From an uncultured bacterium (GTDB taxonomy: Bacteria; Auribacterota; JACPWU01): DNA of 32,000 nt. The stretch covers positions 60,001-92,000 of the forward strand of contig CAZXEQ010000005.1 of assembly GCA_964640155.1 (NCBI GenBank), given 5' to 3'. The position numbers were made by a program, and so were the translations under genes. The notes under the pieces were generated by a model. It did no database searches. It was not told where the DNA came from and saw nothing but the letters and a program-made list of their open reading frames with translations. Positions 6,044 through 30,539 of the stretch are shown here, piece after piece (within the stretch, counting starts at the first letter, position 1; every line of letters starts with the position of its first letter).

Positions 6044-6084
6044 ATAAAAGCTTTCTTATCTTTATAAAAAGGCTACAGCTATCA

Positions 6085-6211: not shown

Positions 6212-6227
6212 CGATTTATTTCATAAA

Positions 6228-9725: not shown

Positions 9726-9732
9726 TAAATTA

Positions 9733-9741: not shown

Positions 9742-9797
9742 TTTTATAGAACGTTCTGGGGATGAAAGAGTTTTACATACTGCAAATGAATTCATAA

Positions 9798-9874
9798 TTG
9801 TTCATTAGAAAGTTCCTTTGAGTTCGTTTCCCTCGCTGGGGGAAACGAACGCGTCTGAACATTCTGATGAACAA
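9798..9874. repeat. Structured palindromic intergenic element (short copy, 77 bp, opposite orientation)
   Basis: Termini TTGTTCATTAGAA/TTCTGATGAACAA (12/13 complementary). Hairpin GTTCGTTTCC/GGAAACGAAC (9822-9831/9841-9850). Aligns to the reverse complement of 6085-6211 through TCCTTTGAGTT...GAACATTCT[A/G]AT. Confidence 0.7.
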
Positions 9875-9991
9875 TAAGAAATACAATAAGATTAATTAAT
9901 TATTTCTTCGTTTTTGCTAAAAAAGTTTTATACTACTGATAAATAGCTTCTTAATCAGTCATCATTAAATGTTTTTATTACATAAACTTCC

Positions 9992-13997: not shown

Positions 13998-14001
13998 AAA
14001 A

Positions 14002-14982
14002 TTAGTCCATTCGATGGACTTTTTTACACAACTTCGCAGCCAATAAGATAGCTTCAAGCATACTCTCTTCTCTGGCCGTATTCTTACCTGCAATATCAAA
14101 AGCTGTTCCATGATCAGGAGAAGTTCTCACAAAAGGAAGACCCAATGTCACATTCACTGCTTCATCAAAAGCAATGATTTTCAAAGGGGCTAAGGCTTGA
14201 TCATGAAACATGGCAACCACTCCATCATATTTACCGCGATACGCATGATAAAATAAAGCATCACCTGAAAAAGGTCCTTCTGCTTTTATATTTTTGCGTT
14301 TCGCCTCTTGTACCGCAGGTTTAATTACTTCTTTTTCTTCTTTTCCCCCATCTTCTCCCCCATGAGGATTAAGGCTAGTCACAGCAATTTTTGGTTTTTT
14401 AATTCCTAGTTTTTTCAACGCATCATTAAAAAGTTGGATCACCTTTAAAATTCTTTCCTTTGTAATAGCACGCGCTATTTTTATGACCGGAAGATGATTT
14501 GTCACCAAAGCTATTTTCAAACGCGAGCTAGCCATCATCATCACAACATCATTTACTTTTGTCCAACCAGCTAACAATTCTGTATGCCCTTGAAAAGGAA
14601 TTCCTGCCTGAACAATGCTTCCCTTATGAACAGGAGCTGTCACCATCCCATGTATTCTACCTTGAGAAATATCTTTAAAAGCAGCACTCAAACAATCAAT
14701 TGCTAGTCTAGCTGTTTCTTTTCTAGGCTTGCCCGAAGAGACCCAATTAAGTGGGATAGAACTAACTGGACGAATAAGAATTTGCTTGGGACGAGAACGA
14801 CCAAAAAGAATTTCACGAAGAGGAATTTTTTGTTTTTGAGCTAGAAATTCTAAGACACCGGCAGGAGCGTAAACCCAAGGCTCACAAACTTTCCAAACGT
14901 TACGATGTACTAGGGCTTTGAAAACAACTTCAGGCCCAATGCCTCCAATATCTCCAATGGTGATTCCAAGAATGGGTTTCAT
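14002..14982 (-). CDS. pdxA: 4-hydroxythreonine-4-phosphate dehydrogenase PdxA
   Basis: ITIGDIGGIGPEV, GHTELLA and RTSPDHGTAFDIAGKNTA motifs. ATG 14982 (MKPILG...) has GGAG 8 nt upstream. The tracked start at 14988 is TTG. Confidence 0.9.
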   Translation of the reverse strand: MKPILGITIGDIGGIGPEVVFKALVHRNVWKVCEPWVYAPAGVLEFLAQKQKIPLREILFGRSRPKQILIRPVSSIPLNWVSSGKPRKETARLAIDCLSAAFKDISQGRIHGMVTAPVHKGSIVQAGIPFQGHTELLAGWTKVNDVVMMMASSRLKIALVTNHLPVIKIARAITKERILKVIQLFNDALKKLGIKKPKIAVTSLNPHGGEDGGKEEKEVIKPAVQEAKRKNIKAEGPFSGDALFYHAYRGKYDGVVAMFHDQALAPLKIIAFDEAVNVTLGLPFVRTSPDHGTAFDIAGKNTAREESMLEAILLAAKLCKKVHRMD

Positions 14983-14988
14983 GAACAA

Positions 14989-15076
14989 GTCTCCAGTCGC
15001 CAGTCTTCGGTCACCAGTTCACAAGGAATATATTTATTTCCTACAAGCTGGAGACAGGAGACCGATGACTAAAAAC
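14989..15076 (-). repeat. Two inverted arrays of heptamer repeats (GTCNCCA-type) in the surA-like/pdxA spacer
   Basis: Plus-strand tandem heptamers GTCTCCA GTCGCCA GTCTTCG GTCACCA GTTCACA (14989-15023). The inverted array is TACAAGC TGGAGAC AGGAGAC CGATGAC TAAAAAC (15042-15076). A GGAA...TTCC mini-hairpin lies between them. Confidence 0.6.
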
Positions 15077-16062
15077 TAATAGATAGCAATATGAGCTTTT
15101 TTCTTCAGCTCACCCACCCACTTTTTATGGATAACCTCAACCTTTTCTTGATAGAGCTGATCTTGTATTTCAGCCCAAGCTTCGGAAAGAGGTTTTACAC
15201 GTGATTGTTTCTTTGCATTCAAAATAACAATATGAAATCCTAGTTCGCTTTCAATAATGTCGCTGGTGTGCCCCACTTCCAAGGAAAAAGCTTCATTCTC
15301 AATTTCCTTCATCAAATCCCCTTTTGAGAAAAAAGGAAGGTTTCCACCCTCTTTTGCATAAGGACCTTCGGAAAACTCCTTCGCAACTGCTTCAAAAGAA
15401 GTCCCTTCATCTAAACGTTTTTTAGCTTCCTGAATTTTATGATAGGCAGCTTCTCGGTCCTTTTCTTTCTTAATCAGAATTTGCCCTACTTGAATTTGTT
15501 CCGGATCAGAATATTTAGAAATATTCTTCTCATAATAATCTGCAATTTCCTTTGGTCTTACAATAACGGATCGAGAAACCTCCTGACGCGTAAGTGTTCG
15601 TACCAAGAGCTGCTCATGAATATCTTCTCGAAGTTGATCAACCGTCATACCTTCTTTCCCTAAAGCAAAATAGAACTCTTCTTCAGAGTCAAACTTGGAT
15701 TTAATTTGTTTTAACCGTGCTTCAGCATCTTTTTCATCCACCTGAAGATTTTTCTTCTTCGCCTCTTGCAAAACAAGCTTTCTTTCAATAAGTTGATCTA
15801 AAGCTTCTTTGCGAGCCTCGACCAATCTTTTCTCTAACTCTTCTCCAGAATAAGATCTTTTATATTTAGCATACAAAGGTCGCAGCATTTGATCGAGCTC
15901 TTGAGAAGTTACAATCTCTCCATTCACATCTGCTACCACACGAGAAATCACAGCTGATTCAGAATAGATGAGATGAGAAAAAAACATCAAAGAAAGGATA
16001 AAAATTGAAGCTACATTTATTTTCAGAGTTTGATTTTTCATTTTCTCGCTTGGGTTATTCAT
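15076..16062 (-). CDS. Periplasmic peptidyl-prolyl isomerase, SurA-like (SurA_N-type chaperone region plus one parvulin domain)
   Basis: Signal peptide. Parvulin block ILIKKE...SEGPYAKEGGNLPFFSKGDLMKEIENEAFSLEVGHTSDIIESELGFHIVIL. Gene order surA-like, pdxA, rsmA as in proteobacterial operons. An alternative start is Met8 at 16041. Confidence 0.8.
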   Translation of the reverse strand: MNNPSEKMKNQTLKINVASIFILSLMFFSHLIYSESAVISRVVADVNGEIVTSQELDQMLRPLYAKYKRSYSGEELEKRLVEARKEALDQLIERKLVLQEAKKKNLQVDEKDAEARLKQIKSKFDSEEEFYFALGKEGMTVDQLREDIHEQLLVRTLTRQEVSRSVIVRPKEIADYYEKNISKYSDPEQIQVGQILIKKEKDREAAYHKIQEAKKRLDEGTSFEAVAKEFSEGPYAKEGGNLPFFSKGDLMKEIENEAFSLEVGHTSDIIESELGFHIVILNAKKQSRVKPLSEAWAEIQDQLYQEKVEVIHKKWVGELKKKAHIAIY

Positions 16063-16081: not shown

Positions 16082-19000
16082 TTATACCTTAAACTTAGCT
16101 TTCGATTTGTGTTGATGCCTCAACCTACCATACGCACTTTTCTCTTTCAATACATTTCTCAAACGAATGACTAAACGCAATGGATTTAAATCTGACGGAC
16201 ATTCCATCATATGCTCTATAAAGTCTGCTTTTCGAAAATAAATTCTCTCCTTATGTTTTTGTATAGAAGTAATCTTCTTATCTCTAGCTAATATTTTTAA
16301 ATGCGCAATTTCTATTAAAAGCAGCATTTCTTCAGGCAAAGATCCAAAACGATCCGTCAATTCGTCCACGACTTTTTTCAAATCTTCCGGTGCATCCGTC
16401 TGAAAAATCTTATGATAAACCTCCATTCTTAACCGAGCATCATGAAGGTAAGAATGTGGAATCCCCCATTCAAATCCTAATTGAAGACTCACAGGTTTTT
16501 TCTCAATGACCTTTTCTCCTGAAAGTCGGCGTATGTTCTCATCTAAAAGTCGACAATACAATTGAAATCCAATGGCTATGATATGCCCATGCTGCTCTTT
16601 TCCCAAAATATTTCCAGCTCCTCGAATCTCCAAATCCCGCATCGCAACTTTAAAACCGGAACCCAAATCTGTAAAATCTTCTATGGTTTTTAGCCTCATT
16701 TTAGCTTCGGGACTGAGCATACGATCAGGGGCATAAATCAAATACGCATAGGCCCTTCTTCTGAAACGTCCTACCCGTCCTCTTAATTGATAGAGATCCG
16801 CCAAACCAAAACGATCCGCATGATCAATGATAATGGTATTCGCATTGGGAATATCCAGCCCCGATTCCACAATATTGGTGGCAATCAACACTTGAATCTT
16901 CCCTTCAATAAACGATTTCATCACTTCAGATAATTCTTCCTCATCCATTTGCCCATGTCCCACAGCAAAAGTGGCTTGAGGCACCAATTTTTGCAATTTT
17001 TCTTTCATGCGATGAATGCTCCCCACGCGATTGTGAATAAAGAAAACTTGTCCATCGCGAGAAATTTCACGCACAATGGCATCTCGAATCACACGTTCAT
17101 CAAAAGGGATAAGAATCGTTTCAATAGGAAGTCGATCTTCGGGGGGTGTATGGATCAAGCTCATGTCTCGCGCCTGCATCAAAGATAAATACAAGGTTCT
17201 TGGAATAGGTGTTGCTGATAGGGTAAGAACATCGACAGAAGCCCGCATCTTTTTTAACTTTTCCTTATGAAGAACACCAAAGCGTTGTTCTTCATCAATC
17301 ACCACAAGTCCCAAATCTTTAAAGCAAATATCTTTCGCAAAGAGACGATGTGTTCCGATCACTACATCCAAAGAACCTTCTTTTAATTTTTTGATAATTT
17401 TTTTCTGCTGAGATTCATCTCTAAATCTTGAAAGCATCTCTACTTCAATCGGGTATCCCGCGAAACGCTCCCGAAAGGTATAATAATGTTGCTGAGCCAA
17501 AACAGTAGTCGGAACAAGAATGGCCACTTGCTTTCCTCCCATCACCACTTTAAAAGTTGCCCGAATTGCCACTTCTGTTTTCCCAAAACCCACATCACCA
17601 CAAATCAAGCGATCCATCGGTTTTCCAGATTCTAAATCTTTTTTCACATCTTGAATCGCTTCCCATTGATCTGGAGTTTCTTCAAAAGGAAAAGAGGCCT
17701 CAAAAGTTTTCTGCCATTCTGTATCAACGCCAAAAGCATGTCCCCCCAAGGCTGCTCTTTTGGCCTGAACCTCTAAAAGTTCAGCTGCAAAATCCATGAG
17801 TGCTAATTGAGCCTTTTGTTTGGTTTTCTCCCAATCCTTTCCTCCCAATCGATTTAATTTAGGAGCTCGACCTTTAATCCCAATATAACGTTCCACCAAT
17901 TCAAACTGATCAACAGGGACATAAAGTTTTGCTCCTTGGGCATATTCAATGGTTAAAAACTCTCCATGCGATCCTCGATCATTTAACAAATCCACACCGA
18001 GAAACTTTCCAATTCCATAATTCAAATGAACCACCCAATCCCCAGGACGAAGCTCTCGATAATCTTGAATAGGAAGACCCTGCCTCACACGACGAGGAAG
18101 AGAACGTACTTCTAGACGACCTAAAATATCTCCTTCCGTCAAAAACGCTCTTTTTTCTTTTGGCAAAATAAAACCTTTGGAAAGATGCCCTACCCAAGAA
18201 TGATGTTGTTCCTCATTCCAAATTCCTTTTTCTTTCAACATTTGTGTCCAATGCTCTATTTCAGCTTGTTTTGGAGCAATCAAATGAATTTCATAACCTT
18301 CTTTCATTTTCTCATCGATTTTGGAAAAAATTTCGGCAACATAGCCCAAAGGAGAATCCTGATGACGTTCTATTCCTTGCCATACAACCGAACGTTGAAC
18401 GGGCAAAGATAAAGAAGGCAAGGCATTCTCTTCAGCTGTATCAGAAAGATAAAGCATCGAAGAACTTTTCAAATCTTCTAAATCCAAATAATCTTCACTT
18501 CCTTCTGGGATATCTTCCTTTAAAACATCATATTTTTGAACAATGGCTTGAGAATGATCCCAAACGAGAAGAAATTTTTTGGGGAAATAATTTAAAAAAC
18601 TTCCCCAATGAAGATTTTTTTCAATCAATTCTAATTCACACGCGGGGAAAACTTCTGCGTGTTCAATGATACTTTGAGAAATTTGGGTTTGAGGATTAAA
18701 AAAGCGCAAAGAATCAATTTTTGCCCCATCAAATTCTAAACGTAAAGGATCATCATATTGAGGAGAAAAAACATCAATAATCCCCCCACGTACACTAAAT
18801 TCTGCCTTATTCTCAACCACCGCTTCACGTTTAAAACCAAACTGATCCAAAAACTGAATCAACCCATCAAAAGAAAATTCCTTGCTTTTTGCGACAGATA
18901 GAATCATTTTCTTAAATGAAGAAGGACTTACCACTTTATGAATCAAAGCCTGAAACGGAGCAACCACCCATGATTGACCTGATTTATTTTGCAAGCCCCC

Positions 19001-19306
19001 TAAAGCTGTAAAACGTTCTGCAATAATTTCAATATGAGGAGAAATTTTTTCATGAGGCAATGTTTCCCAAGATGGAAAGAGATAGCCTTTTTCTTCGGAA
19101 AAAAATTTCATATCTGAGAAAAAATTCTCGGCTTCGGTTTGCCCCGCTGTAATGACAAGCACCGGTAAACCCAACTTCTGACGAAGATAGGCCACCAAAG
19201 CAGCTTTGGACGACTCCCACAATCCCTGAACAGAAAGACGCGGACCATCCCGAAGTTTTTTTAAAACATCTTCAAATGCAGTGATATTTTCAAGTAAAGA
19301 TTTCAT
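16082..19306 (-). CDS. mfd: Transcription-repair coupling factor Mfd
   Basis: About 1074 aa. Contains a CarD-like RNAP-interaction region (GDWVVHLNYGIGKFLG), helicase motifs GDVGFGKTEVA, DEEQRFGV, SATPIPRTL and QLRGRVGR, and a TRG region. I preferred ATG 19306 over the tracked GTG 19330. Confidence 0.93.
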   Translation of the reverse strand: MKSLLENITAFEDVLKKLRDGPRLSVQGLWESSKAALVAYLRQKLGLPVLVITAGQTEAENFFSDMKFFSEEKGYLFPSWETLPHEKISPHIEIIAERFTALGGLQNKSGQSWVVAPFQALIHKVVSPSSFKKMILSVAKSKEFSFDGLIQFLDQFGFKREAVVENKAEFSVRGGIIDVFSPQYDDPLRLEFDGAKIDSLRFFNPQTQISQSIIEHAEVFPACELELIEKNLHWGSFLNYFPKKFLLVWDHSQAIVQKYDVLKEDIPEGSEDYLDLEDLKSSSMLYLSDTAEENALPSLSLPVQRSVVWQGIERHQDSPLGYVAEIFSKIDEKMKEGYEIHLIAPKQAEIEHWTQMLKEKGIWNEEQHHSWVGHLSKGFILPKEKRAFLTEGDILGRLEVRSLPRRVRQGLPIQDYRELRPGDWVVHLNYGIGKFLGVDLLNDRGSHGEFLTIEYAQGAKLYVPVDQFELVERYIGIKGRAPKLNRLGGKDWEKTKQKAQLALMDFAAELLEVQAKRAALGGHAFGVDTEWQKTFEASFPFEETPDQWEAIQDVKKDLESGKPMDRLICGDVGFGKTEVAIRATFKVVMGGKQVAILVPTTVLAQQHYYTFRERFAGYPIEVEMLSRFRDESQQKKIIKKLKEGSLDVVIGTHRLFAKDICFKDLGLVVIDEEQRFGVLHKEKLKKMRASVDVLTLSATPIPRTLYLSLMQARDMSLIHTPPEDRLPIETILIPFDERVIRDAIVREISRDGQVFFIHNRVGSIHRMKEKLQKLVPQATFAVGHGQMDEEELSEVMKSFIEGKIQVLIATNIVESGLDIPNANTIIIDHADRFGLADLYQLRGRVGRFRRRAYAYLIYAPDRMLSPEAKMRLKTIEDFTDLGSGFKVAMRDLEIRGAGNILGKEQHGHIIAIGFQLYCRLLDENIRRLSGEKVIEKKPVSLQLGFEWGIPHSYLHDARLRMEVYHKIFQTDAPEDLKKVVDELTDRFGSLPEEMLLLIEIAHLKILARDKKITSIQKHKERIYFRKADFIEHMMECPSDLNPLRLVIRLRNVLKEKSAYGRLRHQHKSKAKFKV

Positions 19307-19420
19307 GTCGTTCAATTTTTCTTTACACACTTTACTACCGATCTTTCAATAAGTCCAAATTGCAATGTCTCACAAAAATTTCAATATTGCATTAGGCCTG
19401 TAAGGAACAACCATAAGATA

Positions 19421-19429
19421 TGATAAAAT
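19421..19429 (+). promoter_or_regulatory. Extended -10 promoter element TGATAAAAT, 6 nt upstream of the KdpD-kinase ATG
   Basis: TGATAAAAT-ATAGCT-ATG(19436). No SD. Confidence 0.4.
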
Positions 19430-19435
19430 ATAGCT

Positions 19436-20932
19436 ATGAACAGTTTAAAAACATCAAAACCTTTTCAAGCTTATCTGATGAGCATTACTTTGGTTGCTTT
19501 AACCACCTTTTTGGGCGAATGGGTTAAGGAAAAACTTGAGCCAACCAATCTCGTTATGCTCTATCTTTTGATGGTCGTGATAGTCGCTACTCTTTGGGGA
19601 CGGGGGCCTGCGATTTTAACTTCCATTTTAAGTGTTCTTGCTTTTGATTTTTTCCTTATTCCTCCTTATTTGACCTTCGTTGTTCATGATATACAATATG
19701 TTTTTACTTTTGCAGGACTTTTAATTGTAGCCTTGGTTATAGGAACATTAACATCTCGAATCAGAGAACAGGCAATACAGGCAAAAGAACAAGAGGCCCA
19801 AACATCTGCGTTATATCGATTAAGTAAAGATTTAGCGGCAGCAGAATCTTTCGAAAAAGCTTTGCAAGCTATTCGAGAAAATGTAGGGAAAATGCTTAAT
19901 GGTCTTATGTGCATTTATTTTCCTGTCCATCATGTTTTAGAACCTGTCAGCTATGATCCGGATTTCCCAATCAATGAACATGAAAAAACAATTGCAACCT
20001 GGGTCTTTGAAAATGGGAAAGCCGCTGGACCCAGTGCAGATACTTTAGTAGCCGCACAAGCCCATTATCGTCCTCTTCAAACATCTCAAAAGACATTAGG
20101 TGTTTTAGGAATACGCCTCAAAGAAGACAGATCCCAGATGACTTTAGAAGAGCAAAATTTATTGAGTGCTCTCGGTAGTCAGGCTGCTATTGCAATCCAA
20201 CGCTCCAAATTTGCCGAGGAAACACGTCAGATAGCGGTCATGAAACAAACTGAAAAACTTCAGACAGCATTATTAAATTCCATTTCTCATGATTTAAGAA
20301 CTCCTCTTGTCTCCATTACAGGGACCTTAAGCAGTCTTTTGCAAGACACAAGTTTGCTTAAAGATCAAAACAGAAAAGAACTTTTGGAAGATGCCTATGA
20401 AGAATCTACCCATTTGAATCGTTTGGTAGGTAATCTTTTGGATATGACAAGAGTAGAATCTGGTACGTTAAAAATTCAGTTAAAACCTTGTGAATTAAGA
20501 GACGTACTCGGATCTGCGTTACAATCATTAAGAGAAAAATTAGAAAAAAGAGAGATTCAAATTTATATTCCTAATGATTTCCCAGAGATCCCAGTCGATT
20601 TTTCTTTAATGATGCGAGTGTTTATCAATCTCATTGATAATGCTGTCAAATATTCTCAAGCAGATTCGCTCATTAAAATAACAGCAAAAATCCTTCAAAA
20701 CAAAGTTGTGATTGAAGTTAGCGATGAGGGTTTTGGCATTCCCAAAGAAGATCTCGAGCGTATTTTTGATAAATTTTACAGAGCTGTCAAAACCAAATCA
20801 GTCATAGGGACAGGCCTTGGACTTTCTATTTGTAAGGGGATTATAGAAGCCCATGGTGGAAAAATTTGGGCTCAAAATAATTTAAATAAGGGAGCGACTT
20901 TCTGTGTTGAACTCCCAATTTTAATAGGATAA
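19436..20932 (+). CDS. kdpD: KdpD-type sensor histidine kinase lacking the N-terminal KdpD/Usp sensor (4-TM DUF4118-like + GAF + HisKA + HATPase_c)
   Basis: 498 aa. TM core NLVMLYLL...FDFFLIPPYLTF is characteristic of KdpD. H-box LLNSISHDLRTPL with His285 (CAT 20288-20290). N, G1 and G2 boxes NLIDNAVKYS, DEGFGIP and GTGLGLSICKGI. Directly followed by kdpE. Confidence 0.85.
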   Translation: MNSLKTSKPFQAYLMSITLVALTTFLGEWVKEKLEPTNLVMLYLLMVVIVATLWGRGPAILTSILSVLAFDFFLIPPYLTFVVHDIQYVFTFAGLLIVALVIGTLTSRIREQAIQAKEQEAQTSALYRLSKDLAAAESFEKALQAIRENVGKMLNGLMCIYFPVHHVLEPVSYDPDFPINEHEKTIATWVFENGKAAGPSADTLVAAQAHYRPLQTSQKTLGVLGIRLKEDRSQMTLEEQNLLSALGSQAAIAIQRSKFAEETRQIAVMKQTEKLQTALLNSISHDLRTPLVSITGTLSSLLQDTSLLKDQNRKELLEDAYEESTHLNRLVGNLLDMTRVESGTLKIQLKPCELRDVLGSALQSLREKLEKREIQIYIPNDFPEIPVDFSLMMRVFINLIDNAVKYSQADSLIKITAKILQNKVVIEVSDEGFGIPKEDLERIFDKFYRAVKTKSVIGTGLGLSICKGIIEAHGGKIWAQNNLNKGATFCVELPILIG

Positions 20933-20935
20933 CTC

Positions 20936-21634
20936 ATGGAACACTCCCCTTTGAGAATTCTTGTCGTCGACGATGAAAAGAGTATTCGACGTTTTTTAAA
21001 AACAACACTGACTTCTCATGGGTATAGAGTATTCGAAGCCTCAGATGGGAAAGAAGCTTTGGAAAACTCTGTTTCCTCACATCCCGATGCAATTGTCTTG
21101 GATCTAGGTCTTCCTGACATGGATGGAATAGATGTCACACGTGAGATTAGAAAAAGAACGAAAATTCCCATTATTATTCTATCTGTACGAGAAGACGAGA
21201 CTGACAAGATTGCGGCCCTAGATGCAGGGGCAGATGATTATTTAACAAAACCCTTCAATGCGGGAGAAATGCTTGCACGTTTAAGGGCTGTGATGAGACG
21301 ATTGATGCCACAAGACGAAGGAACGGTTTTTAAAGTCGGAAAACTTTCAATGGATATTGCAAAACATAGTCTCGAACTTAAGGGGGATCCGATACGTCTT
21401 ACGCCAACAGAATATAATATTCTAAAAGTTCTTGTGATGAATGCGGGAAGAGTCGTTACCCATCAAAGTATTTTGAAGGAAGTGTGGGATAAGTCTGAGG
21501 ATTTAGAAGGAGTTTCGCATCTTTTAAGAGTGACCATTAGTAATCTTCGTAACAAAATCGAACCTAATCCCAATCAACCCACTTACATTTTGACTGAACC
21601 AGGGATTGGATACCGCCTGTCCGTAGACGATTAA
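20936..21634 (+). CDS. kdpE: OmpR-family response regulator KdpE
   Basis: Receiver motifs ILVVDDE, DLGLPDMDG and KPF. Winged-helix C-terminus LTPTEYNILKVL...GIGYRL. Position is 3 nt after the KdpD-type kinase and upstream of kdpFABC. Confidence 0.85.
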   Translation: MEHSPLRILVVDDEKSIRRFLKTTLTSHGYRVFEASDGKEALENSVSSHPDAIVLDLGLPDMDGIDVTREIRKRTKIPIIILSVREDETDKIAALDAGADDYLTKPFNAGEMLARLRAVMRRLMPQDEGTVFKVGKLSMDIAKHSLELKGDPIRLTPTEYNILKVLVMNAGRVVTHQSILKEVWDKSEDLEGVSHLLRVTISNLRNKIEPNPNQPTYILTEPGIGYRLSVDD

Positions 21635-21672
21635 TCTATATTTCTCTTCCTGAATGATTTTTTCAGTCTTAA

Positions 21673-21690
21673 TTTTGACGCCTTTTTGAC
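21673..21690 (+). promoter_or_regulatory. Candidate KdpE binding site: direct repeat TTTTGAC-N4-TTTTGAC
   Basis: Two identical heptamers lie 11 bp apart start to start (21673-21679 and 21684-21690), about one helical turn. They sit 22-39 bp upstream of the -10-like TATAAAT (21712-21718), in front of the kdp structural genes. Confidence 0.35.
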
Positions 21691-21725
21691 TCTCTCTTAA
21701 CTTTATTTCATTATAAATTAAGATT

Positions 21726-21959
21726 ATGAAAAGGATGATTCAGATCTTTTATTTTATTCTTTTGGTGATTGCAGCTGATTTCTCGACTCAAACTCAGCTC
21801 TATGCGATTGTGCCACCCTCTGCCATGCAAGGCAAAGAGTCTCACAAAGAGACCGAGCAAAAATTGATGAATCTTCTCGAGAAACTTGAACGACACGAGG
21901 AAGATCATATTCGTTTTATCCAACATACAAAGGATGAATTACGAGGATTAAAAAGATAG
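21726..21959 (+). CDS. Small signal-anchored/secreted coiled-coil protein (hypothetical), first ORF of the kdp leader
   Basis: 77-aa ORF with a hydrophobic N-terminus. No SD, but TATAAAT ends 7 nt before the ATG, which fits the leaderless pattern seen elsewhere in the window. No homology recognised. Confidence 0.35.
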   Translation: MKRMIQIFYFILLVIAADFSTQTQLYAIVPPSAMQGKESHKETEQKLMNLLEKLERHEEDHIRFIQHTKDELRGLKR

Positions 21960-21969
21960 GAGTATGAAC

Positions 21970-22050
21970 ATGGACATATTATTTTTAGGAATTACTTTTG
22001 CTTTGCTTGCGGTATCCATTGTCTTAATCAACTTTTGTGACAAGCTTTAA
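21970..22050 (+). CDS. 26-aa hydrophobic peptide (MDILFLGITFALLAVSIVLINFCDKL), putative Kdp-associated small membrane peptide
   Basis: AGGAG at 21957-21961 lies 8 nt before ATG 21970. Single TM-length hydrophobic stretch. Sits immediately upstream of kdpF. Confidence 0.35.
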   Translation: MDILFLGITFALLAVSIVLINFCDKL

Positions 22051-22063
22051 AAGGAGGTTTTAT

Positions 22064-22156
22064 ATGTTAGCTGTTTACTGGATTGCTGGCATTATTTCGA
22101 TGATTGTTTTTATTTATCTTTTAGTAGCACTTCTTAAACCGGAGATATTCTCATGA
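22064..22156 (+). CDS. kdpF: K+-transporting ATPase subunit F (KdpF)
   Basis: 30-aa peptide [30 protein letters not shown] with the KdpF-like YLxxALLKPExF ending. AGGAGG lies 6 nt upstream. Stop overlaps the kdpA ATG (ATGA at 22153-22156). Confidence 0.7.
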   Translation: MLAVYWIAGIISMIVFIYLLVALLKPEIFS

Positions 22157-23892
22157 ACAATTTTATTCAATGCATGCTTTATTTGGTTGCTCTTTTGTTA
22201 TGTATCAAGCCACTTGGGGCCTATATGGCACGAGTATATGAAGGAAAGCCGGCTGGGCTCAATGTTTGGTTAGGTGGATTTGAACGACTCATTTATCGTT
22301 TGTGCGGCATTGATGCTAAAAAGGAAATGTCATGGAAAACTTACGCGATTGCCATGATGATTTTTAATGGTTTGGGCATTTTTGTTGTCTATCTTTTTCA
22401 AAGATTACAGCATTGGCTTCCTTTAAATCCCATGCATATGGCTCCTGTGTCTGCTCACTCAGCTTTTAATACAGCGGTTAGCTTTGCAACCAATACCAAT
22501 TGGCAAGGCTATGGTGGTGAATCGACTATGAGTTATTTAACCCAAATGGCCGCCTTAAGTGTACAGAATTTTGTTTCAGCTGCATCTGGCATGGCTGTTT
22601 TAGTCGCACTCATCCGAGGATTTGTTCAGAGACAAAAAGAAACCCTCGGAAATTTCTGGGTTGATTTGGTGAGAACCACTCTTTACATCTTATTACCTTT
22701 GTCACTGATCTTCTCCGTTATCTTAGTCTCTCAAGGTGTACCTCAGACCTTTAAACAAAGTCAGACCGCGTCTTTGAGAAATCCCATCAAGGATGGAAAT
22801 GGGAATGCCTTAACCGAGCAAACACTGGCATTAGGTCCTGTTGCGTCTCAAATAGCTATTAAGCAATTGGGAACCAACGGAGGCGGTTATTATAATGTGA
22901 ATTCTGCTCATCCTTTTGAAAACCCAACTCCTTTTTCAAATTTTCTTGAAGTAGTTGCGATTCTTCTTATTCCTGCAGCGCTTTGTTACACCTTTGGATC
23001 GATGGTGAAAGACAAACGTCAGGGCTGGGCTCTTTTGATTGCGATGACCCTTATTTTTGTTCCATGTCTATGGACATGTATCCATGCAGAACAGGGTGGA
23101 AATCCAGCTTTTACCAAATTAGGGATAGATCAGGCAACAAGCGTCTTGCAGTCGGGCGGAAATATGGAGGGAAAGGAAGCCCGTTATGGCATTGTAAATT
23201 CTGCTATTTGGGCTACAGCCACAACAGCTGCATCCAATGGTTCTGTAAATTCAATGCATGATTCTTTCACTCCATTGGGAGGTTTAATTCCCATGTGGCT
23301 CATGCAGCTTGGAGAAATTATTTATGGCGGAGTCGGATCTGGGCTTTACGGAATGATTGCTTTTGCAATTCTAGCTGTTTTTATTGCAGGACTGATGGTG
23401 GGTCGTACTCCGGAATATCTGGGTAAAAAGATTGAGTCCTATGAAATGAAAATGGCCACTCTAATGATTTTAATCCCCCCATTTTTAGTGCTTTTGGGGA
23501 CAGCTATTGCTGTTGTTGCGCCAGGAGGCAAAGCCACTATTTTCAACCCAGGAGCACATGGTTTTAGTGAGGTTCTCTACGCTTTTTCATCAGCGTCGAA
23601 TAATAATGGAAGCGCGTTTGCAGGATTGGGTGCAAACACCCCATTTTATAACACGGCCCTTGGGCTATGCATGTTTTTTGCACGTTATTGGTTGGCAATT
23701 CCTATCTTGGCGATTGCAGGAAGCCTCGCAAAAAAGAAAATCGTACCTGCGAGTTCGGGAACTCTTCCAACACACACGCCCCTATTCGTATTATTTCTAG
23801 TAAGCGTTATTTTAATTGTCGGGGCCTTGACCTTTTTCCCATCATTGGCACTTGGACCCATTGTTGAACATTTAATGGTTGTCTCACAATAG
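22153..23892 (+). CDS. kdpA: K+-transporting ATPase subunit A (KdpA)
   Basis: 579-aa polytopic protein. Selectivity-filter-like repeats ([45 protein letters not shown]) are typical of KdpA. Confidence 0.95.
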
Positions 23893-23902
23893 GAGAATGG
23901 AT

Positions 23903-25993
23903 ATGAGTATCAATATTATGAAGAAAACGCATAAAGCAATATCTTTGTTTGATCCTGGAATTGCAGGGCCAGCAGTTTTAAGTTCATTAAAGAAACTGGA
24001 TCCTAGGCATCAAATCAAAAATCCAGTCATGTTTGTGGTGTTTATTGGAAGTATTCTGACCACAGGACTTTTCTTTCAAGCTCTTCTGGGGCATGGAGAA
24101 TTGCCAGCGGGATTTATTTTAGCTGTCACATTATGGCTTTGGTTTACTTTAATCTTTGCTAACTTTGCTGAAGCGATGGCTGAAGGACGTGGGAAGGCTC
24201 AAGCGGAAAGCTTACGTAAAACAAGAAAGGATACCTCGGCCAAAAAGCTTTCAAAGCCTAATTATGGATCTCACTTTCAAAAGGTTTCTGCAGCAACTCT
24301 TAAAAAAGGAGATGTGGTATTAGTTGAAATAGGAGACTTTATCCCCATGGATGGTGAAATTATTGAGGGTGCTGCTTCTGTCGACGAAAGTGCAATTACA
24401 GGAGAAAGCGCTCCTGTGATTCGAGAATCAGGAGGAGACAGAAGTGCTGTTACAGGCGGCACACGTGTTTTATCTGACTGGCTTGTTGTCAAAATCAGTT
24501 CTAGTCCAGGCGAAACGTTTTTAGACCGTATGATTGCAATGGTGGAAGGCGCCAAGCGTCAAAAAACACCTAATGAGATAGCTCTATCTATTTTACTTGC
24601 AGGTCTTACCATCATTTTTCTTTTGGTGACTGTTACGCTCCTCCCCTTTTCAATCTACAGTGTTGTGACAGCGGGTGTGGGCGTACCTGTTACAGTGACA
24701 GTACTCGTAGCTCTTCTGGTTTGTTTGATTCCTACCACTATTGGAGGTTTGCTTTCTGCGATTGGGATTGCAGGAATGGACCGTATGATACAAGCCAATG
24801 TTATTGCAACTTCGGGTCGAGCGGTAGAAGCTGCAGGTGATGTAGATGTTTTACTTTTGGATAAAACAGGAACCATTACTCTTGGCAATCGTCAAGCCGT
24901 TGCCTTCATTCCAGCAACTGGAATTACAGCAGAAGCACTTGCGGATGCGGCGCAGTTGTCATCTTTGTCTGACGAAACTCCGGAAGGCAGAAGTGTTGTA
25001 GTTTTAGCAAAAGAAAAATACAAGATCCGGGAACGTAAAGTTCATGAACTCGGAGCAACGTTTATCCCCTTCACAGCTCAAACACGCATGAGTGGTGTAA
25101 GACTAGCGGATGGAAGAGAAATTCAAAAAGGAGCTGTGGATGCCATTGAAGCCTATGTGAAAAAATTAGGGGGAACTTTTCCTGAGGAAGTTAAGAATTT
25201 TTCAGACGGTATTGCCAGAAGTGGTGGCACTCCCCTGGTTGTTGCTGAACGTTCAAAAGTCTTGGGCGTGATTCAGCTTAAAGATATTGTTAAGGGTGGT
25301 ATTAAAGAACGTTTTGGAGAACTTCGCCGAATGGGAATTAAAACCATTATGATTACGGGAGATAATCCCATGACTGCCGCCGCCATTGCAGCTGAGGCAG
25401 GCATGGATGATTTTTTAGCTCAAGCAACTCCTGAAACAAAGTTGAAGTTGATTCGAGAGATGCAAAGCGGTGGACGTCTTGTCGCCATGACAGGAGACGG
25501 AACCAATGATGCCCCTGCTTTGGCTCAAGCAGATGTTGCAGTTGCGATGAATACGGGAACACAGGCTGCCAAAGAAGCAGGAAATATGGTGGATCTTGAT
25601 TCTAATCCTACAAAATTAATGGAAATTGTAGAGATCGGAAAGCAACTTCTGATTACACGTGGCAATTTAACAACCTTTAGCATTGCTAATGATGTCTCAA
25701 AATATTTTGCGATTATTCCTGCAGCCTTTATGGGAACTTATCCTGCGTTAGGAGCGTTAAACATCATGCATTTAGCAACTCCAGCAAGTGCCATTCTTTC
25801 AGCTGTGATTTTTAATGCTTTGATTATTATCGCTTTAATCCCATTGGCTTTGAAGGGAGCTCGTTACAAAGCTCAGCCAGCAAGCCGTTTGCTTCGCAAT
25901 AATCTTTTAATTTACGGTGTAGGAGGAATTATTGCTCCCTTTATTGGAATTAAATTAATCGACATGCTTTTAGTAGCACTTCATTTACTATAG
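23903..25993 (+). CDS. kdpB: K+-transporting P-type ATPase subunit B (KdpB)
   Basis: P-type motifs TGES, DKTGTIT, MITGDN and [15 protein letters not shown] at 23891-23895 favours ATG 23903 (or 23897) over the tracked TTG at 23879. Confidence 0.95.
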
Positions 25994-26057
25994 CACGACA
26001 TAATTCCACTATACATGGAGGATATTTCTAACTGTAGTTTTTACTTTCTTACTAGGC

Positions 26058-26154
26058 CATTCATTAGTGTGAATAGATTTATGTAGGCCAGTACTATGAG
26101 AAACAAAGCATGAATAATCATTCATTAGAAAAATCCTTTGTTTCTCATTAGTAT
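26058..26154. repeat. Repeat-related hairpin insertion in the kdpB-kdpC spacer
   Basis: 13-bp perfect stem ATGAGAAACAAAG/CTTTGTTTCTCAT (26096-26108/26136-26148). The 20-mer at 26121-26140 matches 9801-9820 at 18/20. CATTCATTAG is duplicated (26058-26067 and 26119-26128). Confidence 0.45.
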
Positions 26155-26222
26155 GCTTAGTACTAGCAGAATTGTATAAATGAAGATTTAATGAACTGAC
26201 TTGTAATTTAGGAGGATAGAAC

Positions 26223-26798
26223 ATGATTAAAGAACAATTAAAACCCGCTTTTATCTCTTTTGTCTTACTAACATTGATAACAGGACTTGTTTACCCTTTG
26301 GTGGTGACAGGGATTGCTCAAACTTTTTTCAGACATCAGGCCAATGGAAGTTTGATTAAACAAGAAGATAAAGTGGTTGGATCAAAACTGATAGGACAGA
26401 CCTTTGATGATCCAAAATATCTATGGGGACGTCCTTCAGCAACAGGTCCTTCCTATAATGGAGCTGCTTCTTCGGGGTCTAATTATGGTCCCAATCATCC
26501 TGATTTTTTGAAGGCAGTTGAGGAAAGAGTAAAAGTTTTAAAAGAGTCGGACCCTTCTAATACAAAGCTTGTCCCTGTGGATTTAGTCACAGCTTCTGGA
26601 AGTGGTTTGGATCCTCATATCAGTCTTGCGGGGGCCTATTATCAAGTTGCCAGAATTGCGCGTGTGAGAGGAATGGATGAAGAAAAAATTAGGGGAATTA
26701 TTCTGCAGAATACACAAGGCCGTTTTCTAGGACTACTGGGAGAGCCTGTGGTTAATGTTCTAAAAGTAAATCTTGAATTGGATGCAAATGAAAAATAA
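26223..26798 (+). CDS. kdpC: K+-transporting ATPase subunit C (KdpC)
   Basis: 191 aa. N-terminal TM then GLVYPLVVTGIAQTFF..QANGSLI and ASGSGLDPHIS motifs. AGGAGG at 26210-26215. Confidence 0.9.
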   Translation: MIKEQLKPAFISFVLLTLITGLVYPLVVTGIAQTFFRHQANGSLIKQEDKVVGSKLIGQTFDDPKYLWGRPSATGPSYNGAASSGSNYGPNHPDFLKAVEERVKVLKESDPSNTKLVPVDLVTASGSGLDPHISLAGAYYQVARIARVRGMDEEKIRGIILQNTQGRFLGLLGEPVVNVLKVNLELDANEK

Positions 26799-26812
26799 AG
26801 TACACTTAAAGA

Positions 26813-28999
26813 GTGGATAAAAAAAGACCGGATCCGGATCAAATTCTAAAAACAGTTCAAGCGGAAGAATCTAGGCGAGGAAAGCTCAAGATTTTTTTCG
26901 GAGCTGTCGCAGGTGTAGGAAAAACCTATGCCATGCTTGAAGCTGCCAAACATCGAAAAAAAGAAGGTATTGATGTCATCGTTGGTTATGTTGAAGCACA
27001 TAAACGTGCTGAAACAGAAGCGCTTCTAGAAGGTTTTGAAGTTCTGTCCCTTAAAATTATTCCTTATAAAAATATTGAATTACGTGAATTTGACATCGAC
27101 GCAGCTTTAAAGCGTCGCCCCTCTCTTATCTTGGTAGATGAACTCGCTCATACCAACGCTGAAGGATCTCGACATCTTAAGCGCTGGCAGGATGTGGAAG
27201 AACTGTTAAATGAGGGAATTGACGTTTACACAACTCTCAATGTGCAACATTGTGAGAGTGTCAATGATGTCATTGCTCAAGTTACCAATGTTGTTGTTAG
27301 AGAAACCGTCCCTGATACTTTTATTGAGCAGGCTCATGAAATTGAGCTTGTGGATTTACCTTCTGAAGAACTTCTCAAACGCTTAAAAGAGGGGAAAGTT
27401 TATCTTAGCTCTCAGGCAGACCATGCTGCAGAGCATTTCTTCCAACCCGGAAATCTCATTGCTTTACGGCAATTGGCTCTTCGGTATACAGCCAAAAATG
27501 TAGATGCAAAAATGCGTGCTTATAGACAGATGCATTCCATCTCTAAAGTCTGGAATGTAGGAGAACGCTTTCTACTGGGTGTGAGTTCAGGACCCTCGGC
27601 AATAAAACTTATTCGTACGGCAAAGCGCATTGCTTCTGAAATTGGCGCAGCCTGGACAGTCGCTTATGTGGAAACCCCTTCTTTTCGAAGTTCAAGTGAA
27701 AATATTGCCAGAGTTTCAGACATGCTCAGATTCGCTGAAAAGTTAGGAGCTGAAACAGTTAGTTTAAATGGTCCGGATATCGGCGAAGAGCTTATTTCTT
27801 ATGCCAGATCAAAAAACATTACAAAACTGATTGTGGGGAAACCACAACGGACGAGATTTCAAGAAATTATTTCAGGATCTGTTGTAAATCAACTGGCTCG
27901 CAAAAGTGGTGAAATTGATCTTTATATTATTAGTGGAGAAAAAGCAGACATTTCCGAAAAAATCAAAAGAGATTCACTCTTGAAATTTTCGTGGAAAGGA
28001 ATGGGTTTTGCTATTCTTGCAGTGTTTTTATGTACAGGAGTCAATCACCTCCTCTTTTCTTATTTGTCTCTTGCGAATCTCGTGATGATTTATCTCTTAG
28101 GCGTAGTTTGGATTGCTTTTAACTATGGAAGACGTGTTTCTATCATTGTTTCTTTTTTGAGCGTACTTTGCTTTGACTATTTTTTTGTTCCTCCTTATTT
28201 AACTTTTTCTGTTTCAGATACTCAGTATCTAGTGACATTTACAGTGATGTTAACCATTGGGCTTTTGATCAGCGAGTTGACAGAAAGACTACGTCGACAA
28301 ACAGTTGCCATGAGACTCCGTGAAGAGCGTACCTCGGCTTTATATGCGTTGACGCGAGATCTCTCTAAAACATCTAATCCGGATGAACTTTATCAATTGG
28401 GAGTTCAACATATCTCAGATTTTTTCAAGTGCCCCGTTGTGGCCTTGGTACGTGATGTTAAAAAAGGGCTTATTGTTAGAGCTGGGAATATTGAAAGTCA
28501 TATTCTAGATTCTAGTGAAAGAGCCGTAGTTGAATGGTGTTATGAACAGAAAAAAATAGCGGGGAAAGGAACGGATACTCTACCTGGATCTTTAGGGCTT
28601 TATCTTCCTCTCTTAGGAGCTGAAAGAGTTGTCGGCGTTTTGGGAATATTCCCAAAAGACGAAAAACAATTTTTGAGTCCTGAAGCCTTCCACATGTTTG
28701 AAATGTTTGCAAATCAAACTGCACTGGCTATTGAAGGAACCGAACTTTCTGCTGCAGCCATTCAGTCACAGTCTCAATTTGAAAATGAGAGATTAAGAAG
28801 TCTTCTCTTAACGACATTCTCTTATGATTTGCCAGAACAATTTTTAGATATTTCAAAAGCCGCCGATGAGCTTTTAAGGCTCAAGACATCTGATGATATA
28901 TCAAAGCACAGAGATTTAATTCAGAAAATCAAAGATGAAGCAGAGCGCTTAACCAATCTTGCTAAAGAGCTTCCTGGAATTATTGATTCAAAAAGTTAA
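26813..28999 (+). CDS. kdpD: KdpD sensor paralogue without kinase: KdpD N-terminal domain + Usp + 4-TM + GAF + degenerate DHp (His replaced by Tyr), no HATPase_c
   Basis: GTG start. RPDPDQIL and Walker-A-like FGAVAGVGKTYAML match the KdpD N-terminus. A Usp-like region follows. TM core NLVMIYLL...FDYFFVPPYLTF is paralogous to the kinase at 19436. The H-box position reads LLTTFSYDLPEQ (Tyr671, TAT 28823-28825). The protein ends 57 aa later with no ATP-binding boxes. Confidence 0.85.
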   Translation: MDKKRPDPDQILKTVQAEESRRGKLKIFFGAVAGVGKTYAMLEAAKHRKKEGIDVIVGYVEAHKRAETEALLEGFEVLSLKIIPYKNIELREFDIDAALKRRPSLILVDELAHTNAEGSRHLKRWQDVEELLNEGIDVYTTLNVQHCESVNDVIAQVTNVVVRETVPDTFIEQAHEIELVDLPSEELLKRLKEGKVYLSSQADHAAEHFFQPGNLIALRQLALRYTAKNVDAKMRAYRQMHSISKVWNVGERFLLGVSSGPSAIKLIRTAKRIASEIGAAWTVAYVETPSFRSSSENIARVSDMLRFAEKLGAETVSLNGPDIGEELISYARSKNITKLIVGKPQRTRFQEIISGSVVNQLARKSGEIDLYIISGEKADISEKIKRDSLLKFSWKGMGFAILAVFLCTGVNHLLFSYLSLANLVMIYLLGVVWIAFNYGRRVSIIVSFLSVLCFDYFFVPPYLTFSVSDTQYLVTFTVMLTIGLLISELTERLRRQTVAMRLREERTSALYALTRDLSKTSNPDELYQLGVQHISDFFKCPVVALVRDVKKGLIVRAGNIESHILDSSERAVVEWCYEQKKIAGKGTDTLPGSLGLYLPLLGAERVVGVLGIFPKDEKQFLSPEAFHMFEMFANQTALAIEGTELSAAAIQSQSQFENERLRSLLLTTFSYDLPEQFLDISKAADELLRLKTSDDISKHRDLIQKIKDEAERLTNLAKELPGIIDSKS

Positions 29000-29090
29000 T
29001 CATCTAAGAAGGTTATTTCCTCTATTTACAGCACACATTTCTATTTTCCTATTGCTACACTTACTCGTATTTCTTTTGAATGGGGCATTG

Positions 29091-29099
29091 TGATAGAAT
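29091..29099 (+). promoter_or_regulatory. Extended -10 promoter element TGATAGAAT, 7 nt upstream of ATG 29107
   Basis: TGATAGAAT-TTAGAAA-ATG. No SD. Confidence 0.4.
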
Positions 29100-29106
29100 T
29101 TAGAAA

Positions 29107-29676
29107 ATGAAACTTCTTTGGACTTTCACTCTAATTCTCTTCACATCACTACAAATCGCTCAAGCTGATACTCGCCTCGATGAACGTCGGAAGGAATTCT
29201 TTCATGAAAAAATCAGAAAATCATCTCCTCTCAAAGAAGAAAAGAGAAAAGAAGATATCGAAATTCTTTCTATCTCCAAAAATATCATCACAGGCTATAC
29301 CTATGATGGAGCAACACAAGCTAACTGCATTGAGATAAAGTTTAAAATTAATACTGAGGGAGAAATGACACTCCCCTATTTTTATGTTTATCTTTACGAC
29401 TCAAAAAAAGAACTGGTTGAGCGCTTAGGACAGACCATGCTTAAAGAGACAACAGGAAGTCATCCTATTGATCCTCTCTCTTTTCCCTTTAAAGGCAAAA
29501 AAACTTACATTGTCCAATTTGATTATCCCAACCATATTCAATTTAAATATTCACTCTGTGTCATGGGAAATGACAAAATGCTTTCAATTAAAATGAAACC
29601 TGAGCAAACCCGTTGGGAAGAATTTGAGTTTGATGAAAAAGATAAAGTTCTTTCTACCACAAAACTTGAGGGTTAA
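29107..29676 (+). CDS. Secreted protein of unknown function
   Basis: 189-aa ORF with signal peptide MKLLWTFTLILFTSLQIAQA. TGATAGAAT lies 7 nt upstream of the ATG. No family recognised. Confidence 0.5.
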   Translation: MKLLWTFTLILFTSLQIAQADTRLDERRKEFFHEKIRKSSPLKEEKRKEDIEILSISKNIITGYTYDGATQANCIEIKFKINTEGEMTLPYFYVYLYDSKKELVERLGQTMLKETTGSHPIDPLSFPFKGKKTYIVQFDYPNHIQFKYSLCVMGNDKMLSIKMKPEQTRWEEFEFDEKDKVLSTTKLEG

Positions 29677-30539
29677 AGATCTGGAATATTGGAACGCTTT
29701 TTTTTCTTCGCCAGGCTTTTCAACTCTTTCAGCCAAACTTCCTCTAGAAAATCAAGAGAGATAAAACGTTCTAAAGAAACCCCCTGTTTAGTTTTAAGAG
29801 CTTGAATATAATTAAAAAAAGAAATTCGCTCTTTTTCGCCAGATCCGTGAAAAAGGAAATAAATCAATCCCCAGGCTTGCGCATATTGAAGTTTTCTCAT
29901 ATGTCCATCCAAATAGGATTCCAGACTTATCAACTTTGATAAGGGAATCAACGTTCCTGCACGATCAGATTCCAAAATCAATTTCATATAAGATTCATCG
30001 AGTGAAACCTTTTTAAATTTTCCCCAACGAATTTGACTGAGTCCAATGTACTCTGCAAAACCCTCATTAAACCAGAGAGGGGGATGTTTCATGACCTGAT
30101 AAATCACCGCATGTGTCAATTCATGCGCCAAAATAGGCAAAGTATGCTTAAGCGATTGATGCCACACCACTATTTCATTCTTTTCCTCGCTAAAAAAACC
30201 TCCAATAAATTGAATCTCTCCCCTATCTTTTTTTACATACTTCCAAAAAGCATTTTTATTCTCCAAAATTTTGATTTTGACAGGATTTGAACTCTCAGCG
30301 TTCAAATCTAAAATACGATATAAATTTTCATAAACAGTTGAAATCCCTTTTGCATAATGGCGTGTTTGTGTTTTTGAAGCCCAACTTTCTAAAACCCAGG
30401 CTTTAGTCTCAACTTTAAAATAGTCTGCCTCCTTTTGCAGTGTAAAATGCTCCTGCTTCCCCGCAAAACTAAAAGAGACCATTAGAAACATGATCAAAAT
30501 CAAACCATTTATTCTTTGGATGTTCTTAAGATTTTTCAT
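29673..30539 (-). CDS. Secreted HExxH zinc metallopeptidase, DUF1570/peptidase-MA-like
   Basis: Signal or anchor sequence. HELTHAVIY followed by WFNEGFAEYIG (gluzincin-type third ligand Glu). Its 3' end overlaps the convergent gene by 4 nt. Confidence 0.6.
   Translation of the reverse strand: MKNLKNIQRINGLILIMFLMVSFSFAGKQEHFTLQKEADYFKVETKAWVLESWASKTQTRHYAKGISTVYENLYRILDLNAESSNPVKIKILENKNAFWKYVKKDRGEIQFIGGFFSEEKNEIVVWHQSLKHTLPILAHELTHAVIYQVMKHPPLWFNEGFAEYIGLSQIRWGKFKKVSLDESYMKLILESDRAGTLIPLSKLISLESYLDGHMRKLQYAQAWGLIYFLFHGSGEKERISFFNYIQALKTKQGVSLERFISLDFLEEVWLKELKSLAKKKKRSNIPDL

Follow-up and report, generated by a model that had tools for sequence, protein, structure and literature searches.

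The DNA analyzed here, a stretch of 32,000 nucleotides referred to as the window, comes from an uncultured bacterium (GTDB lineage Bacteria; Auribacterota; JACPWU01; assembly GCA_964640155.1, contig CAZXEQ010000005.1, positions 60,001 to 92,000 of the forward strand) and carries a kdp locus with two genes for KdpD-derived proteins. A short protein of 498 amino acids (aa) is encoded at one end and a long protein of 728 aa at the other, and the genes for a KdpE-like regulator, a KdpF candidate, KdpA, KdpB, and KdpC lie between them, all on the + strand, the short and the long gene being 5.9 kb apart (Table 1). An earlier note on this DNA had described both open reading frames (ORFs) as having complementary domain sets, and the ORFs, the domain sets (by Pfam), the peptides quoted, the motif GAVAGVGKT, and the H-box SHDLRTP were all found where it had placed them. 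As detailed below, the short protein is a KdpD-type sensor histidine kinase, and the long protein is a pseudo-histidine-kinase: its dimerization and histidine phosphotransfer (DHp) hairpin is dead yet maintained, and the catalytic and ATP-binding (CA) domain is missing. The gene for the KdpE-like regulator starts 4 bp past the short kinase gene; its product matches the NCBIfam KdpE model with E=1e-65, under the curated cut-off, and is 70-80% identical to the regulators adjoining short kinases in the related loci L048-L055. The stop of the kdpF candidate overlaps the kdpA start, and the predicted peptide is 73-74% identical to Potass_KdpF-annotated peptides of loci L133 and L049. The long gene begins 15 bp after kdpC, and a gap of 105 bp separates the short gene from the start of the divergent mfd gene.

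Table 1. Features of the kdp locus, given as positions in the window.
Feature	Position	Strand	Basis
Short KdpD-type histidine kinase, 498 aa	19436-20932	+	Pfam; NCBIfam KdpD
Short protein, DUF4118/4-TM	19472-19789 (residues 13-118)	+	Pfam
Short protein, GAF_3	19853-20203 (residues 140-256)	+	Pfam
Short protein, HisKA/DHp	20264-20464 (residues 277-343)	+	Pfam
Short protein, phospho-acceptor His285	20288-20290	+	H-box SHDLRTP
Short protein, HATPase_c	20606-20920 (residues 391-495)	+	Pfam
KdpE-like OmpR-family response regulator, 232 aa	20936-21634	+	Pfam Response_reg + Trans_reg_C
kdpF candidate, 30 aa, from internal ATG of ORF 22037-22156	about 22064-22156	+	
kdpA	22153-23892	+	Pfam KdpA E=1e-249
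kdpB, P-type ATPase subunit	23879-25993	+	Pfam
kdpB Ser177 of TGES, equivalent to E. coli Ser162	24407-24409	+	alignment
kdpC	26223-26798	+	Pfam KdpC E=3e-75
Long non-histidine-kinase KdpD, 728 aa	26813-28999	+	Pfam; E. coli KdpD alignment
Long protein, KdpD-N/predicted atypical serine kinase	26873-27502 (residues 21-230)	+	Pfam KdpD (PF02702) E=1e-93
Long protein, Walker A GAVAGVGKT	26900-26926	+	E. coli KdpD alignment
Long protein, Walker B D109/E110	27137-27142	+	E. coli KdpD alignment
Long protein, R190	27380-27382	+	E. coli KdpD alignment
Long protein, Usp	27566-27907 (residues 252-365)	+	Pfam
Long protein, DUF4118/4-TM	28004-28315 (residues 398-501)	+	Pfam
Long protein, GAF_3	28376-28735 (residues 522-641)	+	Pfam
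Long protein, pseudo-DHp tail, residues about 646-728	28748-28996	+	BLASTP + MAFFT alignments
Long protein, Tyr671 at phospho-acceptor His position	28823-28825	+	BLASTP + MAFFT alignments

The short protein contains a DUF4118 region with four transmembrane (TM) helices, a GAF domain, a HisKA domain with its His, and a HATPase_c domain, its gene adjoins that of the KdpE-like regulator, and Pfam searches detected no KdpD-N or Usp domain in it. It matches positions 397-881, the C-terminal half, of the NCBIfam KdpD model (E=2e-116), reaches 390 bits against the full-length equivalog NF007793, for which the cut-off is 1123, and is 35% identical to E. coli KdpD in a three-way alignment in which the long protein reaches 41%. 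More than 110 homologues of 476-517 aa share the identical domain set. For the long protein, at least 120 homologues of 720-733 aa were found; the homologue lists used throughout comprise the best 120 matches for each protein. No HATPase_c domain was detected by Pfam in the long protein, and the domain is absent from 120 of its 120 listed homologues. The domain search that the earlier note had named as a possible refutation therefore went in its favor, with no KdpD/Usp region in the 498-aa protein and no ATPase domain in the 728-aa protein.

The N-terminal domain (KdpD-N) is the most conserved part of the long family, with a mean pairwise identity of 80%. In E. coli KdpD, this domain is an atypical serine kinase which phosphorylates KdpB at Ser162 and inhibits the pump at high K+, and mutagenesis showed that the phosphorylation requires the Walker A motif, Walker B D109/E110, and the adenine-binding pair W39/R190 (Silberberg et al., 2024, PMC11018627). 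The Walker A motif of the long protein (G30AVAGVGKT38) aligns with that of E. coli KdpD (G30ACAGVGKT38), and G30-x5-G36K37T38, D109, E110, and R190 are invariant in 120 of the 120 listed long-family proteins. On the substrate side, KdpB of the window is 70% identical to E. coli KdpB, T159 G160 E161 S162 are invariant, and a stretch of 17 residues at the substrate site is identical to that of E. coli. By analogy with the E. coli protein, the long protein would not be a passive sensor and its KdpD-N is itself probably an atypical serine kinase, so that the earlier proposal of a sensing subunit devoid of a catalytic domain is difficult to maintain. E. coli KdpD lacking DHp and CA still phosphorylates and inhibits KdpFABC (Silberberg et al., 2024, PMC11018627). 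Motif I of the Usp domain in the long protein is of the E. coli type (RxxxR-x8-W..Y) and not of the S. aureus c-di-AMP type, which fits sensing via its own TM/GAF module. Against the family model NF038185 ('KdpD-like non-kinase potassium sensor'), the long protein reaches 370 bits over residues 4-374, the cut-off being 550, and it runs 350 residues beyond the matching part.

The earlier note had rightly described the long protein as KdpD-N, Usp, TM, and GAF without an ATPase domain but had let it end at GAF, whereas a degenerate DHp tail follows. Alignments of the long with the short protein, and of both with E. coli KdpD (BLASTP, MAFFT), run past GAF through DHp. The H-box region is LLNSISHDLRTPL in the short protein and LLLTTFSYDLPEQF in the long protein, which ends 57 residues past Tyr671. 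This residue aligns with His673 of E. coli KdpD and His285 of the short protein, and the long protein has no phospho-acceptor His. The His is lost in 118 of the 120 listed long-family members, the residue at its position being most often Ser (52) or Tyr (51), then Leu (9), Met (5), or His (2); a hydroxyl residue, Ser or Tyr, is thus present in 103 of 120, the others having Leu, Met, Phe, or His. Around the lost His, E659, R660, L666, T668, F669, S670, L673, I680, S681, and L687 are conserved in the listed homologues. Mean pairwise identity of the tail is 57%, about the level of TM/GAF, as compared with 38% for the linker, and 9 of 16 tails match Pfam HisKA (best E=2.4e-6). An AlphaFold2 model (mean predicted local distance difference test score 69) places a helix at 623-689 and, after a loop, a second helix at 696-725, and a profile search of the tail against the PDB returned only a weak KdpD match (6lgq, E=0.025) amid coiled-coil noise. 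Because the DHp region is conserved, the His is replaced, and the CA domain is missing, the long protein is classified as a pseudo-histidine-kinase. As a matter of speculation, the serine kinase of the long protein might itself phosphorylate the Ser or Tyr in place of the His, as a means of regulation.

The TM-GAF cores of the two proteins are homologous, as had been claimed before, with 30% identity over 328 aa in BLASTP (E=3e-44), and the finding of two KdpD-derived proteins with homologous TM-GAF cores upholds the statement that this is not a simple gene fission. The further proposal of a duplication of a full-length kdpD followed by complementary loss did not survive phylogenetic analysis. 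A neighbor-joining tree of the TM-GAF-DHp core (Kimura distances, 330 trimmed columns, 101 sequences) took in 49 full-length KdpDs from an exhaustive representative search; as it is based on a distance method only, faster evolution of the long core after loss of the kinase could exaggerate the separation of the families. The long family and the short family were each monophyletic (bootstrap 100/100 in both cases), a clade uniting the two was never recovered (0/100), even with 10 extra taxa, and the short family grouped with Anaerolinea-type full-length KdpDs to the exclusion of the long family (99/100). Core identity was 30% between the long and the short protein, 51% between the short protein and its best full-length match, and 41% between the long protein and its best full-length match, and co-resident cores were 27-38% identical in all six paired loci. 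Since each gene is closer to full-length KdpDs than to its partner, bootstraps and identities rule out a recent tandem or local duplication with reciprocal loss. According to these sequence comparisons, the pair combines two old, deeply diverged KdpD lineages, and similar pairs arose independently at least three times.

GTDB species genomes were scanned with a family-specific C-terminal profile of the long family, with flanks of up to 10 kb. The 36 long-family loci detected belong to Omnitrophota, Planctomycetota (Sedimentisphaerales, Phycisphaerales), Desantisbacteria, Margulisiibacteriota, and others. All of them share the gene order kdpA-kdpB-kdpC-long gene, and in the 22 GTDB loci with full context as well as in the paired loci the long gene always lies 3' of kdpC. 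All-versus-all clustering of flanking ORFs revealed no conserved neighbor beyond kdpABC in long-family loci. In the 22 full-context loci, the roughly 3.8 kb upstream of kdpA contained no short-family kinase or KdpE, and the 10 kb downstream mostly contained none either; the resulting estimate of pairing is a lower bound, because the Brocadiaceae kinase-regulator pair sits up to 8 kb upstream, behind inserted genes. These Brocadiaceae-type insertions between the kinase-regulator pair and kdpF consist of toxin-antitoxin and defence-like genes (HigBA and a 1268-aa protein at 12381-17373 of L048, VapBC at 12670-13240 of L133, and CTD10/MC6/DUF2326 with PemK/MazE at 12445-17399 of L135), and the intergenic site looks like an insertion hotspot.

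Viewed from the short family, the pair recurs in Ca. Kuenenia and several metagenomic contigs. Wherever a short-family kinase locus offers enough downstream sequence, kdp(F)ABC and then a kinase-less KdpD follow (5 of 5 loci: the window, L050, L133 from Ca. Kuenenia sp. GCA_021646465.1, L134, and L136). Loci L048 and L049 (Ca. Jettenia), L055, and L135 are truncated ahead of kdpC and agree with this pattern as far as they go, and L078 has the order kdpABC, short kinase, KdpE, and a truncated KdpD of 686 aa. In L136 and L078, the partners (653 and 686 aa, respectively) come from other lineages and stop directly behind GAF, where no trace of a DHp follows. Paired long proteins occur throughout the long-family tree, interleaved with unpaired ones, the S/Y variants being common to both. 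Cross-matching the best 120 long and best 120 short homologues gave at least three co-resident pairs. When metagenomes were scanned with the short-kinase core, most matches were canonical full-length kdpABC-D-E loci (40-46% identity), and only four were close short-family loci (L053-L056). In L111, L118, and L120 (about 8800-10800), kdpABC is followed by KdpDs of 651-668 aa which end right after GAF and have no regulator behind them; these proteins belong to the Anaerolinea-type lineage and not to the long family, and represent independent DHpCA losses. The protein EIIA-Ntr interacts with KdpD in E. coli, and genes of the EIIA-Ntr-like PTS_EIIA_2 family were found in two loci, between kdpC and the truncated KdpD in L136 (17187-17642) and, as a fusion with a P-type ATPase, directly ahead of the short kinase in L135 (6752-9949).

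Domain content, conservation of catalytic residues, loss of the His and of CA, synteny, and phylogeny are direct observations, and the interpretation which we consider probable is a division of labor in which the pump operon encodes a K+-sensing serine kinase, and a K+-sensing histidine kinase works separately with KdpE. The long protein, co-transcribed at the end of kdpFABC, would be a dedicated atypical serine kinase whose Walker A/B site phosphorylates Ser177 in the TGES motif of KdpB and thereby shuts the pump off at high K+. It would have lost histidine-kinase function and kept TM/GAF to make the serine kinase K+-responsive, and its dead DHp hairpin would hold the dimer together, homodimerization through the pseudo-DHp being presumed. 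The short protein and KdpE would form a separate upstream operon in which low K+ leads to KdpE~P and to transcription of kdpFABC. Each half would keep a copy of TM/GAF because each needs its own K+ input, in distinction to those KdpD-N/Usp proteins that are soluble and depend on c-di-AMP. The serine-kinase activity, its target, and the direction of regulation are drawn by analogy from published biochemistry of E. coli and Deinococcus.

Several points weigh against this division of labor. Serine-kinase activity of the long family would be an extrapolation from E. coli and Deinococcus, and position 39, Trp in E. coli KdpD, is an invariant Tyr in the long family, an aromatic substitution at the predicted serine-kinase site. 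That each TM/GAF copy senses K+ is only inferred. The pseudo-DHp is dispensable for serine-kinase activity in E. coli, so the retained hairpin may have another role. Finally, the co-occurrence of short kinases and kinase-less KdpDs is equally compatible with a physical coupling of the two proteins.

One alternative is a dual role, in which the long serine kinase also modulates the KdpE pathway in trans, as an anti-kinase or through docking or scaffolding of KdpE on the pseudo-DHp or the N-terminal domain, with no mixed dimer being formed. In its favor, the DHp-like hairpin is conserved despite loss of the His, response regulators usually dock on DHp helices, and the N-terminal domain of E. coli KdpD is reported to stabilize the binding of KdpE to DNA. 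A dual role is nevertheless unlikely, as there is no OmpR-type regulator nearby in most long-family loci. Moreover, in the published survey 54 of the 61 species with 'Truncated DHpCA domain' alone are without KdpE (Silberberg et al., 2024, Supplementary Data 2), and the tail therefore cannot exist mainly for KdpE.

The earlier note had favored a heteromeric sensor, in which a non-catalytic long subunit pairs with the short kinase via TM and DHp helices and controls its autophosphorylation. Both proteins do keep homologous TM/GAF/DHp modules, the pseudo-DHp is conserved about as much as TM/GAF, short-family kinases were invariably accompanied by a kinase-less KdpD at their locus, and Heermann and colleagues reportedly observed in 2000 that N- and C-terminal halves of E. 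coli KdpD complement each other in trans. On the other hand, co-resident cores are of low identity in all six paired loci and belong to separate deep lineages, and paralogous histidine kinases are generally not known to heterodimerize. The pseudo-DHp is also kept in the 22 long-family loci that have no short kinase nearby, the partners in L136 and L078 do without it, the tree intermixes paired with unpaired long proteins, which have identical S/Y variants, and the invariance of the predicted serine-kinase residues speaks against a non-catalytic subunit. The heteromer is not needed and does not generalize, and we regard it as improbable. Equally doubtful is the more general idea that the dead DHp and the duplicated TM/GAF couple the serine-kinase protein physically to the histidine kinase or to KdpE, be it by mixed oligomers or by regulator docking; if true, pump inhibition and transcriptional shut-off would stay reciprocally linked across two polypeptides and a pseudo-histidine-kinase would act as allosteric partner in a two-component system.

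Decaying remnants, that is, pseudogenes or one full-length kdpD broken by an error of sequencing or assembly, are hardly conceivable although the complementary domain sets look superficially like a broken gene: the two genes are separated by kdpE-FABC, an independent Logan assembly holds the identical 728-aa ORF, tblastn detected no remnant of a CA domain 3' of position 28999 and none of KdpD-N/Usp elsewhere in the window, and over 100 homologues match each protein in length and domain set. Frameshift, assembly error, and pseudogene, the first two of which the earlier note had listed as grounds for rejecting its proposal, are thereby ruled out. Hundreds of homologues share the lengths of the two proteins, with domain conservation of 57-80%, and both KdpD-derived proteins are under selection.

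Other features of the locus include a kdpB-kdpC spacer (25994-26222) of 230 bp, AT-rich and non-coding, which has an AGGAGG ribosome-binding site directly before kdpC and no Rfam match or ORF with homologues; in related loci this spacer measures about 10 bp. Between kdpE and kdpF, a 77-aa ORF (21726-21959, +) has a signal-peptide-like N-terminus and belongs to no Pfam family. Weakly similar ORFs occupy the same position in L134 (12282-12542, E=3e-7) and L050 (12364-12786)/L051, a 31-aa match lies just 5' of kdpA in the Omnitrophota locus L015 (3547-3639), and the product may be a small accessory protein, exported and conserved among these kdp loci. Directly 5' of the kdpF candidate, a strongly hydrophobic ORF of 28 aa (21964-22050, +; MNMDILFLGITFALLAVSIVLINFCDKL) may have arisen by chance or may encode a second small peptide of the membrane. 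Directly 3' of the long gene, a 189-aa ORF (29107-29676, +) has no Pfam or NCBIfam match, was otherwise found only in the other assembly of the same organism (L001), and is not conserved in related kdp loci. Consensus scans of 19000-29800 for promoters and terminators gave results not above shuffled expectation, and an Rfam search of the window, c-di-AMP riboswitches included, returned no family. Upstream of mfd lie three ORFs (- strand) of exactly 328 aa (13125-14111, 14002-14988, and 15076-16062), the last of which is SurA/PPIase-like; two of them overlap and may be alternative frames. A polysaccharide biosynthesis cluster at 230-9725 (-), unrelated to the kdp locus, encodes glycosyltransferases of families 1, 2, and 4, a methyltransferase, a Polysacc_synt_3 flippase, a FemAB-like acetyltransferase, and a DegT aminotransferase.

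The finding reveals no new kind of system. The earlier note was aware of no description of such an overlapping split, and yet 33 of 5495 species are assigned to a class 'Truncated DHpCA + TM/GAF/DHpCA' (Silberberg et al., 2024, Nat Commun 15:3223, Supplementary Data 2), namely 28 Bacillota, 2 Actinomycetota, 2 Pseudomonadota, 1 Synergistota, and no Planctomycetota; that survey included no uncultured phyla and gave the class as a count without further analysis. The window holds the same pair of architectures, a Walker A/B chain without functional DHpCA and a TM/GAF/DHpCA chain with catalytic His, together with KdpE, the comparison being one of architecture in which the lineages may be independent. 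The pair is thus already catalogued, as a count only, and neither pseudo-DHp nor phylogeny was analyzed there. The present data extend the catalogued architecture to uncultured lineages not surveyed before (Omnitrophota, Sedimentisphaerales, Phycisphaerales, Brocadiaceae including Ca. Kuenenia, Desantisbacteria, and others). They also have a consequence for annotation: databases name the 720-733-aa proteins among the 120 listed homologues 'sensor histidine kinase KdpD', and hundreds of long-family entries are mis-annotated in this way, as the proteins lack the His and the ATPase domain. As a natural DHpCA-less KdpD with a presumed K+-sensing module, the long family could serve the study of K+ control of the serine kinase free of the histidine kinase, and its conserved pseudo-DHp poses the small question of why a dead DHp is kept.

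Among known systems, the stand-alone 'Truncated DHpCA' KdpD (61 species; Campylobacterota, Archaea, and some Pseudomonadota) has the same architecture as the 728-aa protein, and as in this class, kinase and KdpE are absent from the vicinity in most long-family loci (Omnitrophota, Sedimentisphaerales, Phycisphaerales, Desantisbacteria, and others). The class differs from the window, Ca. Kuenenia, L050, and L134, where KdpE and a KdpD-type kinase are encoded at the locus of the long protein. For Alicyclobacillus, a split kdpD was reportedly described in 2006. In the split systems of cyanobacteria, Deinococcus, Alicyclobacillus, Acidobacteriota, and Chloroflexota, the kdp operon has the gene for the serine-kinase chain at its 3' end and the histidine kinase and regulator are encoded separately, as in the window, and the kinase half has the architecture of the 498-aa protein. 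The constant position of the long gene 3' of kdpC matches the published remark that in split systems the atypical serine kinase chain is kept downstream of the pump and the histidine kinase is separate (Silberberg et al., 2024, discussion). The serine-kinase half of those split systems is soluble, about 370 aa long (NF038185), and in Deinococcus controlled by c-di-AMP via Usp, whereas the long protein of the window keeps its own 4-TM/GAF and a dead DHp. With respect to the full-length KdpD of E. coli, a tandem serine/histidine kinase, every domain is represented in the pair of the window and the catalytic residues are conserved on the respective chains; the two activities, however, reside on two polypeptides, each with its own sensor module, and one input no longer necessarily controls both outputs.

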